A stretch of 64,000 bases of DNA from Hadesarchaea archaeon. GTDB taxonomy: Archaea > Hadarchaeota > Hadarchaeia > Hadarchaeales > WYZ-LMO6. Location of the stretch: the NCBI GenBank assembly GCA_029259185.1, contig JAPDJF010000003.1:14875-78874 (forward strand). The letters run 5' to 3'. The position numbers and the translations under genes were made by a program. Positions 2,426 to 5,301 of the stretch are shown here, piece after piece; the stretch's first letter is position 1; every line of letters starts with the position of its first letter. The notes below the pieces were generated by a model. The model saw only the letters and a program-made list of their open reading frames with translations. It did not search any database and was not told the origin of the DNA.

Positions 2426-3033
2426 GCCCTAAGCCGGTTAGCGACGCGGAGGTGCACAGCTTTGTGGAGCTGGAGCAGACGCTTGATGCTTCCACGTTGA
2501 GTTCAGCAGGGAGTCACGAGTTTTCGAAGAAAACCAGAAATGTGAAAAATATGTAAGTGGGCGGGGTGGTTTTTGAGAGGGCCAGAACGGTTCGAATTTA
2601 CGCTTGTGGACATCGAGATGCTCGTGACCCGCTCCGGTGGGGATCGAGTCCGGTGGATGAACTCAATGCAGAGCGCAATCCCTTTCCGAAAGGGAGGTAG
2701 TGAGGCGAAAATATTTATGGAGAAACAACAAACCAATGGCCGGTTAGGTTCCGAAGGAGATCAACACGCCTCTTTCGTATGGGGCGTGGGCTTCGGAGAA
2801 CGCCACCCAGCAGGCGTCAAACGCGCTGGGCGGTCAACTCTCCGAAATAGAAGTGCATCGGGCGAAAGCCGCAAAGCTGGTCGGAACCTGACTGAGGCGG
2901 CTCGGTATATCCGAACCGCCGGGGGCGCTACCGTGAGCACCCACGGTGGAGTGACCGCGCCCGAAAGTCCCGCCGGCAATGGCGTGCAAAGGACAACCGG
3001 AAGCCCCGTCCGAAAGGGCGGTCACTTCCGTAT

Positions 3034-3130
3034 GGGCCCGTGGTCTAGTGGTCATGAGGGGAGAACGGATCCCCTGACAAACGTCGCCTTGACGAGGCGA
3101 AGATCCTGGGTTCGAATCCCAGCGGGCCCA
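3034..3130 (+). tRNA. tRNA-Val(GAC) with a 24-nt intron at a non-canonical position (D-stem 3' side, between tRNA nt 24 and 25; genomic 3058-3081).
   Basis: Acceptor GGGCCCG/CGGGCCC with discriminator A. D-loop AGTGGTCA. T-arm CTGGG-TTCGAAT-CCCAG. Anticodon arm TCGCC-TTGACGA-GGCGA gives anticodon GAC with U33 and purine 37. Removing 3058-3081 restores a canonical ...GUCAUGACG... D-stem/position 26. The intron folds as an hBHBh'-like motif: a 4-bp helix GUCA/UGAC flanked by 3-nt bulges UGA and AAA, with an internal hairpin GGGGA-GAACGGA-UCCCC. Confidence 0.7.
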
Positions 3131-3407
3131 CCTTCTTTTGGATCGACTGAAGAGATGGTCGAGCGGAAGCAGACCTACGCCGAGCGCCTGCTGGGGGATG
3201 CGGAGGACAGAGGGTGTGTCGGAAGCTACACCGAGTCGGCGCTCAAGACGATCAAATGTAATATTGAAACGAGAAAGCATTTTTGAAGACTTCAAATTTA
3301 TGCACATAAAAATCGACTACAAAGGTCCTCTTCGGGACTTTTGACCTCTACCGTTGAGTGATATCTGAAGGCTGGTCTCGAGGAGGGTTCGAAGTGGGGC
3401 CGAAGCG

Positions 3408-3505
3408 TCCACGCTCGCTCGGTGAGTGTTCATGCTGTGACTCCAAAACGCCCACCAGACCAAGTGATTGGTATTTTCCCCAGTCAAAAAAAAGTCGTGT
3501 CCGAG
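3408..3505 (+). repeat. Repeat E, copy 2 (direct repeat of 2330-2425).
   Basis: See copy 1. The two copies bracket tRNA-Val and a GC-rich segment without ORFs. Confidence 0.4.
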
Positions 3506-4731: not shown

Positions 4732-5301
4732 GTGGCGAGAACAATGTCAGAAGCTCGGGATCGTCCTGAAGTCGTCGTCCTCCGGATAGGACATCGCCCG
4801 TTTCGGGATAAGCGAGTGACGACCCATGTAGGATTGACGGCCAGAGCCTTTGGTGCCAGTGGTATCGTAATAGCGGATTTCAAAGATAAGGCGGTGGAGA
4901 GAAGCATCGAAAAAATTGTCAGAGTGTGGGGAGGAGACTTCTGGGTCAGGAGCGGAGATTCTTGGAGAGAGGTCGTGGAGGAGTGGAAAAAGAGGGGAAA
5001 AACGGTGGTTCACCTCACCATGTACGGAAAATCCTTACAGGGGGCTCTATCTGAGCTCAGGGGGAAGGATTTGATGGTGGTGGTGGGATCCGAGAAGGTA
5101 CCAAGAGAGGTTTATGAGGTTGCAGACTTCAACGTAGCGATTGGGAATCAACCTCACTCTGAAGTTGCGGCCCTTGCCGTATTTTTGGACAGACTCTTTG
5201 AGGGGAAGGAGCTTCATATGGAGTTCAAGGGGGGAAAAATGAGAGTCATACCAAGTGAGAGGGGGAAAAGAGTGGAGAAGATCAGGATTGGGGGAGCCTA
5301 G
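4732..5301 (+). CDS. tRNA (cytidine56-2'-O)-methyltransferase aTrm56 (SPOUT).
   Basis: About 180 aa with [28 protein letters not shown], which matches the archaeal Trm56 family signature. Confidence 0.65.

Follow-up and report, generated by a model that had tools for sequence, protein, structure and literature searches.

A tRNA-Val(GAC) gene of a Hadarchaeota-related archaeon whose D-stem is very probably interrupted by a 24-nt bulge-helix-bulge intron

The stretch of DNA analysed here, which we call the window, is 64,000 nucleotides long, and positions 3034-3130 of its forward strand read as a tRNA-Val(GAC) gene in which an insert of 24 nt splits the 3' strand of the D-stem. The Rfam tRNA model RF00005 matches this interval over the full length of the model (positions 1-71) with 57.3 bits against a gathering score of 29 (E=1e-9), and this is the sole Rfam match across the 64-kb window. 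That alignment skips over a 26-nt insertion in the D region, and the D-stem pairs that are forced upon the unspliced gene are flagged as non-standard. ARAGORN called no tRNA when given the unspliced 64-kb window and called tRNA-Val(gac) when given the spliced sequence. An earlier note on this DNA had named the gene as tRNA-Val(GAC) and had listed rejection by a covariance model as an outcome that would speak against it; the Rfam score and the ARAGORN call on the spliced product both support that identity, and the positions that it assigned to the parts of the tRNA agree with the sequence throughout. These parts are as follows, read from the sequence except where other evidence is named.

3034-3056, forward strand: 5' exon, comprising the acceptor 5' strand, U8 and G9, GUCU, the D-loop, and U22 and G23 (Rfam, sequence, ARAGORN on the product)
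3034-3040 and 3123-3129, forward strand: acceptor stem, 7 bp, GGGCCCG and CGGGCCC
3043-3046, forward strand: D-stem 5' strand, GUCU
3047-3054, forward strand: D-loop, AGUGGUCA
3081-3130, forward strand: 3' exon, comprising A24, C25 and G26, the anticodon arm, the variable loop AGAUC, the T-arm, the acceptor 3' strand and A3130 (sequence, Rfam, ARAGORN)
3082 and 3083, forward strand: C25 and G26
3084-3100, forward strand: anticodon arm, UCGCC, UUGACGA and GGCGA, with the anticodon GAC at 3091-3093
3106-3122, forward strand: T-arm, CUGGG, UUCGAAU and CCCAG
3130, forward strand: discriminator A, followed by CCTTCTTTT
3131-3139, forward strand: 3' trailer CCUUCUUUU, with no encoded CCA

The hallmarks of tRNA-Val are present, namely a 7-nt anticodon loop with U33 and GAC, a T-loop of sequence GTTCGAATC, a 7-bp acceptor stem and A73. 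The D-stem is intact solely after removal of the 24 nt, when G10-C25, U11-A24 and C12-G23 can pair, together with U13.U22, and the body that results is 73 nt long, the product that the earlier note had predicted and that ARAGORN recognizes. Since A3057 and A3081 are the same letter, excision of 3057-3080 and of 3058-3081 yields identical products. The placement of the insert between tRNA positions 24 and 25 (3058-3081) in the earlier note is thus equivalent to the alternative that it also listed, between 23 and 24 (3057-3080). Its statement that CCA is not encoded agrees with the sequence as well: ACCT is encoded after the acceptor stem (3131-3133 being CCT), while most of the Hadarchaeota-type relatives (L125-L149), among the matches listed, encode ACCA at the same point. 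Judging from its letters, the oligo-T run in the trailer is likely an archaeal transcription stop. The locus is identical, or differs by at most one base in 6 kb, across independent assemblies (the same contig in ENA, NCBI and Logan). Long ORFs cross both the tRNA and a structured element that lies upstream of it (2573-3286 on the forward strand and 2834-3307 on the reverse strand), and one such ORF is called as a 222-aa gene in public assemblies (L001 2021-2689). That gene call over the tRNA is a spurious protein, caused by RNA genes that went undetected. A 14-nt complementarity between 2221-2234 and the anticodon arm was judged to be due to chance.

The window has about 51% G+C and encodes archaeal Trm56, archaeosine TGT, aRF1, a trp operon and CODH/ACS. 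Its ValRS finds its best named matches in Hadarchaeales, Hadarchaeum and Hadarchaeota, at 62-66% identity, with other relatives reaching 73%. From these sequence comparisons, the organism is related to Hadarchaeota and is not close to any named genome. Relatives' loci anchored on ValRS (L122-L124, 67-73% ValRS identity) contained no tRNA-Val. The gene for Trm56, the tRNA C56 2'-O-methyltransferase, lies at 4732-5301 on the forward strand, about 0.5-2 kb from the intron-bearing tRNA-Val. The same neighborhood occurs on a Hadarchaeota-type metagenome contig (L141 3188-3700), and Trm56 lies at a similar distance from the intron-bearing tRNA-Val in Baldr- and Hermodarchaeota loci (L051, L071, L078, L080, L094, L103, L114). 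This proximity could be a coincidence or a conserved linkage.

Folding and parsing of the gene place the following elements of a bulge-helix-bulge (BHB) motif around the insert.

3048-3050, forward strand: outer helix h, 5' strand GUG (G15, U16, G18; BHB parse, h = 3)
3051-3054, forward strand: central helix H, exon strand GUCA (tRNA positions 19, 20, 20a and 21), pairing with 3075-3078 (MFE fold)
3055-3057, forward strand: 5' splice-site bulge UGA, made of U22, G23 and the first intron nucleotide (MFE fold, BHB parse)
3057-3080, forward strand: 24-nt intron AGGGGAGAACGGAUCCCCUGACAA, with cleavage placed after the second nucleotide of each bulge (BHB parse, ARAGORN on the product)
3058-3074, forward strand: inner helix h' and its loop, GGGGA at 3058-3062, GAACGGA at 3063-3069 and UCCCC at 3070-3074 (folds)
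3075-3078, forward strand: central helix H, intron strand UGAC (MFE fold, covariation)
3079-3081, forward strand: 3' splice-site bulge AAA, made of the last two intron nucleotides and A24 (BHB parse)
3082-3084, forward strand: outer helix h, 3' strand CGU (C25, G26, U27; BHB parse, covariation)

In the MFE fold of the 97-nt gene (z=-2.9), GUCA at 3051-3054 pairs with UGAC at 3075-3078, UGA is bulged and GGGGA/UCCCC closes a hairpin. We also applied a strict BHB parser that demands four of four central-helix pairs, bulges of 3 nt and flanking helices of 2 bp or more, with the spliced product passed to ARAGORN. The parse gave an outer helix h of 3 bp (GUG/CGU), a central helix H of 4 bp and an inner helix h' of 5 bp, and ARAGORN called the product tRNA-Val(gac). 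The central helix, the two bulges and the inner hairpin had all been drawn in the earlier note, and they reappear in both the MFE fold and the parse. With two 3-nt bulges on opposite strands around a 4-bp helix, the motif is formally a strict 3-4-3 hBHBh'. Its weakest part is the outer helix, whose pairs are G-C, U.G and G.U, and in its place the MFE fold favors a shifted 2-bp alternative. The usual rule for BHB cleavage is a cut after the second nucleotide of each bulge. By this rule, which we take to apply here, the junction is 3056/3081, that is tRNA position 23/24, with the same product as 24/25; the rule is consistent with the canonical 37/38 geometry, which we checked, and the product does not depend on exactly where the cuts are placed.

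How improbable this motif is depends on what is asked of it. Motifs of equal quality number about 55 in the 64-kb window when both strands and any register are allowed, so the motif by itself is not rare, and the improbable part is its register. When the 24 nt were shuffled and the motif was required in the register that restores the tRNA, one as good appeared once in 200,000 shuffles (5e-6), and a minimal strict motif in that register appeared in 3.3e-4 of shuffles. The energy of the local 48-nt fold is no better than that of shuffled sequences (z=-0.26). Given that folding energy is not persuasive, we built the case on register and covariation.

For covariation we used a junction alignment of fixed length, in which 23 genes gave 20 distinct rows. 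The register of this alignment was set from the exons alone, with the 5' exon ending in ..GNNA-UG and the 3' exon starting 8 nt before the anticodon loop. Over the 20 rows, 86% of cells were paired, compared with 23-32% when the partners were slid by 1-3 columns, and none of 500 shuffles reached either the observed pairing percentage or the observed covariation score. Helix H was paired in 97.5% of cells over the 20 rows; one of its pairs occurs as UA:10/CG:5/UG:4, another as UA:12/CG:8. The first three pairs of helix h' were 86.7% paired in the same rows, and all three covary. The outer helix h was 70% paired overall; G18:C25 alone is invariant, and the second and third pairs form in 65% and 45% of the 20 rows. 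Among the 23 aligned homologues the 5' bulge is UGA in 22 and UGU in one, and the 3' bulge is AAA, AGA or AUA in every case. Helix H reads GUCA/UGAC in the window and GUUA/UAAC in every Hadarchaeota-type relative listed, a compensated double change that involves one exon and one intron nucleotide, and it implies continued selection on helix H in the lineage of the window. The in-register shuffles and this covariation together uphold the central claim of the earlier note, a BHB intron of 24 nt that interrupts the D-stem in its 3' strand.

The site is far from private to this genome. We scanned species-representative genomes with a pattern that allowed 28-58 nt between the start of the D-loop and the Val anticodon loop, and we recovered at least 118 loci with an insert between the D-loop and the anticodon in tRNA-Val-like genes. 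Among the matches listed, most are archaeal tRNA-Val genes with a D-region insert. Bacterial matches were rejected as intron genes, each being an intact bacterial tRNA-Val with a chance match upstream. Scanning metagenomes yielded a further 25 Hadarchaeota-type contigs. Among the matches listed (L004-L121), D-region inserts fall at three recurrent sites, with 3-4-3 BHB geometry and an A-rich 3' bulge throughout.

Site about 17/18: Thor- and Hermodarchaeota
Site about 20a/21: many DPANN, and Thermoplasmatota or Methanobacteriota MAGs
Site 23/24, that of the window: Hadarchaeota, Methanomassiliicoccales, Woese-, Nano- and Aenigmatarchaeota, and one MAG labelled Hodarchaeaceae

The exact site of the window is occupied in at least 38 distinct tRNA-Val genes from genomes and metagenomes (37 besides that of the window). 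Among the matches listed, the introns at this site are 13-32 nt long and occur in GAC, UAC and CAC isoacceptors, they are frequent in the euryarchaeal order Methanomassiliicoccales, and a length of 24 nt is found in the window alone. ARAGORN also misses the unspliced intron-bearing tRNA-Val genes of relatives.

Three of the matching loci deserve separate mention. A Hadarchaeota-type tRNA-Val(GAC) on the reverse strand of Ga0315268_10000510 (L138), starting about 345 nt from the locus end, has two introns, the same D-stem intron and an insert of about 15 nt after the anticodon at the canonical site. JASEGJ010000021.1 (L108) belongs to a MAG labelled Candidatus Hodarchaeaceae, a name that NCBI taxonomy gives to an Asgard family; its tRNA-Val exons are nearly identical to those of the window, and the ValRS of the MAG (P0027) falls among Hadarchaeales matches. 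Confusion of the names Had and Hod, or faulty binning, may lie behind the label. JBDRMP010000009.1 (L086, 4989 bp), from a MAG labelled Planctomycetota bacterium, has a tRNA-Val(GAC) of archaeal type whose D-stem holds the same BHB intron, and it is probably a mis-binned archaeal contig.

The region upstream of the gene differs from that of its relatives. In the latter (L046, L082, L108, L115, L125-L149) an AT-rich leader precedes the tRNA-Val and holds a TATA box of the GATTTATA type at a distance of about 25-32 nt from the gene, whereas the 70 nt upstream of the tRNA in the window (2964-3033) hold no TATA-like box and consist instead of GC-rich structured sequence. The nearest AT-rich promoter candidates are at 2904-2912, 2708-2718 and 2544-2557. 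As far as these letters indicate, transcription of the tRNA probably starts further upstream, possibly inside or before a 325-nt element; alternatively, this copy of the gene is poorly expressed. The tRNA-Val may be co-transcribed with the upstream RNA.

The element in question, at 2658-2982 on the forward strand, is non-coding and structured, with hairpins capped by GNRA loops (several of them GAAA) and an MFE z of about -3.7, and it ends 51 nt upstream of the tRNA-Val. A second copy, 97% identical, sits on another contig of the same ENA sample (L150 5993-6320), where its neighbors are a DNA ligase gene on one side and a DHH gene on the other, and a third copy is implied by a protein match to the spurious ORF (P0127). 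Rfam returned no match for it at E<=10, phage and plasmid records held none, and a scan of viral contigs with a single exact 29-mer gave no match. Identification as RNase P RNA, SRP RNA or HEARO/omega-RNA was unsupported, apart from a weak partial HEARO match that lies outside the element. That match, at 2049-2132 on the reverse strand, covers the 5' part of HEARO RNA with 26.5 bits against a gathering score of 83 and overlaps the start of a membrane-protein ORF. Its hairpin CCCCUGCCUAAAGGAAGGGG resembles hairpins at 2674-2698 and 2998-3022, and the stretch is probably not a true HEARO. Possibly the 325-nt element is an ncRNA that is mobile or present in multiple copies. Both the element and the tRNA are bracketed by a direct repeat of some 70-86 nt (2325-2394 and 3405-3474, 80% identity, 1080 nt spacing); an A-run follows either copy, and the window contains no further copies.

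On the strength of the gene and the BHB motif, of the exact register of that motif and of its covarying conservation, we conclude with high confidence that 3034-3130 is a functional tRNA-Val(GAC) gene of a Hadarchaeota-related archaeon, its D-stem interrupted by a 24-nt BHB intron that proteins splice. For the enzymes, and for the chemistry of cleavage and ligation, we draw on established knowledge of archaeal tRNA splicing. In the folded precursor, G19-U20-C20a-A21 of the D-loop would pair with the UGAC near the 3' end of the intron to make the 4-bp central helix, flanked by the bulges UGA and AAA and continued by the inner 5-bp hairpin and the short outer helix. EndA would cut once in each bulge, after G3056 and after A3080, and an RtcB-type ligase would then join the exons into the 73-nt tRNA, at which point alone the D-stem could form. 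CCA would be added enzymatically, given that the window encodes ACCU where most relatives encode ACCA. Several considerations weigh against this explanation. The 3' site, with its weak outer helix, could behave like a relaxed HBh' substrate, of a kind that strict enzymes are reported to cut poorly (PMC5829648). The local 48-nt fold is no more stable than shuffled sequences, the TATA-like box and the encoded CCA of relatives are missing, and the window has no EndA or RtcB gene. A second, independently expressed tRNA-Val(GAC) possibly lies elsewhere in the genome.

Some observations argue for a pseudogene, in which insertion of a hairpin broke the D-stem and left a disabled or silent copy that is neither expressed nor processed. 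The box found in relatives is lacking, the multicopy element 51 nt upstream may have displaced the promoter, CCA is not encoded where most relatives encode it, and ARAGORN leaves the gene uncalled. Transcription could nonetheless start further upstream, and it is textbook knowledge that many archaeal tRNA genes lack an encoded CCA. Moreover, the exon helices are all intact, the spliced product is a standard tRNA-Val, and the site of the insert is common to at least 37 other distinct genes, with the BHB kept and a compensated change specific to this lineage. We therefore regard a pseudogene as quite improbable. That the mature tRNA keeps the 24 nt in an enlarged D-arm, with no intron at all, is barely credible: the D-stem cannot form unless they are removed, covariation maintains a 4-bp helix with a 3-nt bulge on each side and not an extended arm, and the length varies over 13-32 nt while the geometry of the junction stays fixed. 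A self-splicing group I intron was rejected as well, since the insert is 24 nt long and sits in the D-stem, whereas a group I core takes some 200 nt or more and usually lies in the anticodon loop; the Rfam scan of the window had no group I match.

A separate matter is which kind of endonuclease the intron calls for. Alpha4 and alpha2 enzymes are reported to need the strict 3-4-3 hBHBh' motif, and (alpha-beta)2 enzymes to accept relaxed forms (PMC3239211). It is conceivable, though on balance unlikely, that only a broad-specificity EndA splices this intron, so that the 3' site is effectively a relaxed HBh' and the intron is diagnostic of the enzyme type. The outer helix is indeed weak, with G18:C25 alone invariant and the other pairs formed in 65% and 45% of rows; strict enzymes are reported to cut the D-loop HBh' intron of Methanopyrus kandleri poorly, and the alpha4 EndAs of Hadesarchaea and DPANN with an L3 insert have been linked to more disrupted tRNA genes (PMC5829648). 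Set against this, the window has in formal terms a 3-4-3 motif whose outer helix h spans 3 bp and inner helix h' 5 bp, and introns at the same site are common, among the matches listed, in Methanomassiliicoccales, an order whose Euryarchaeota cluster is described, as an assignment for the wider group, with strict alpha'2 enzymes (PMC5829648, PMC3239211). Neither EndA nor RtcB is encoded in the 64-kb window. A tblastn search with the EndA of M. jannaschii (sequence matched to PDB 1A79) found nothing in the window or in the loci of relatives, and of the 105 proteins that this query retrieved from a protein database, none bore a Hadarchaeota label.

These results bear on the earlier note's reading of the intron as a pointer to a lineage of the Thermoproteales or Korarchaeota type with a relaxed-specificity endonuclease. 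The same site is occupied in the tRNA-Val of Hadarchaeota, Methanomassiliicoccales and DPANN, so the intron does not point to a lineage of either type, and the taxonomic and enzymatic reading finds partial support. A strict 3-4-3 motif does not itself demand a relaxed-specificity enzyme and, given also the same-site introns of Methanomassiliicoccales, position alone identifies neither a relaxed enzyme nor a Thermoproteales-like lineage. In view of the weak outer helix, splicing may still depend on a broader enzyme. The broader suggestion, that the intron is informative about both the organism and its splicing machinery, survives in part: disrupted tRNA genes have been reported in Hadesarchaea. 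The strict motif says little about the type of endonuclease.

The common view of non-canonical introns is that they are recent, lineage-specific additions tied to relaxed endonucleases. A single old 23/24 intron in tRNA-Val, inherited or moved as a unit across Hadarchaeota, Methanomassiliicoccales and DPANN and not gained repeatedly in recent times, would run against this view. Among the matches listed, the intron is kept in all three Val isoacceptors at the same site, with a UG|A 5' bulge and an A-rich 3' bulge. When the intron hairpins of different phyla were compared, no clear sequence homology was seen. Convergence on a BHB-prone site is at least as likely, and we consider a single old intron doubtful.

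Our results do not change the current understanding of archaeal tRNA splicing. In practical terms, a standard tRNA finder misses the gene here and in relatives, so a genome bin of this lineage would seem to have no tRNA-Val(GAC); tRNAscan-SE 2.0 by default searches for non-canonical introns, of which 673 were found in 217 archaeal genomes (PMC8450103). The comparative results are of modest use for the study of tRNA-intron evolution, in that one site in the D-stem of tRNA-Val is occupied across several archaeal phyla, euryarchaeal orders included, and at least two other D-loop sites of tRNA-Val are occupied in other clades.

EndA is known to recognize BHB motifs independently of their position (PMC4090602, PMC3239211, PMC5829648), and non-canonical D-arm BHB introns have been described at 20/21, 22/23 and 25/26, mainly in Crenarchaeota and Nanoarchaeota (PMC4090602). 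The intron of the window resembles these in being short, spliced by proteins and outside 37/38, with a BHB formed partly from the exon and an interrupted D-arm. It differs in that 23/24 (equivalent to 24/25) is not among the examples of that review, its host is Hadarchaeota-related, and its motif is a strict 3-4-3 and not hBH or HBh'. A closer parallel is Hadesarchaea archaeon YNP_N21: Kaneta et al. (2018) reported that Hadesarchaea have disrupted tRNA genes as well as an alpha4 EndA bearing an L3 insert (PMC5829648). By its ValRS our organism shares the phylum-level lineage with YNP_N21, and both have tRNA genes interrupted outside 37/38, although the ValRS of the window is just 62-66% identical to that of named Hadarchaeales. 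The D-loop intron of M. kandleri pre-tRNA-Glu(UUC) is likewise a non-canonical D-region intron in an organism of euryarchaeal grade (PMC5829648). It is a relaxed HBh' and accompanies a canonical intron, whereas that of the window is single, with both bulges present; the two-intron relative L138, unlike the window, adds a canonical intron as M. kandleri does. The intron of the window is thus a known sort of feature, in a lineage from which such features have already been reported.
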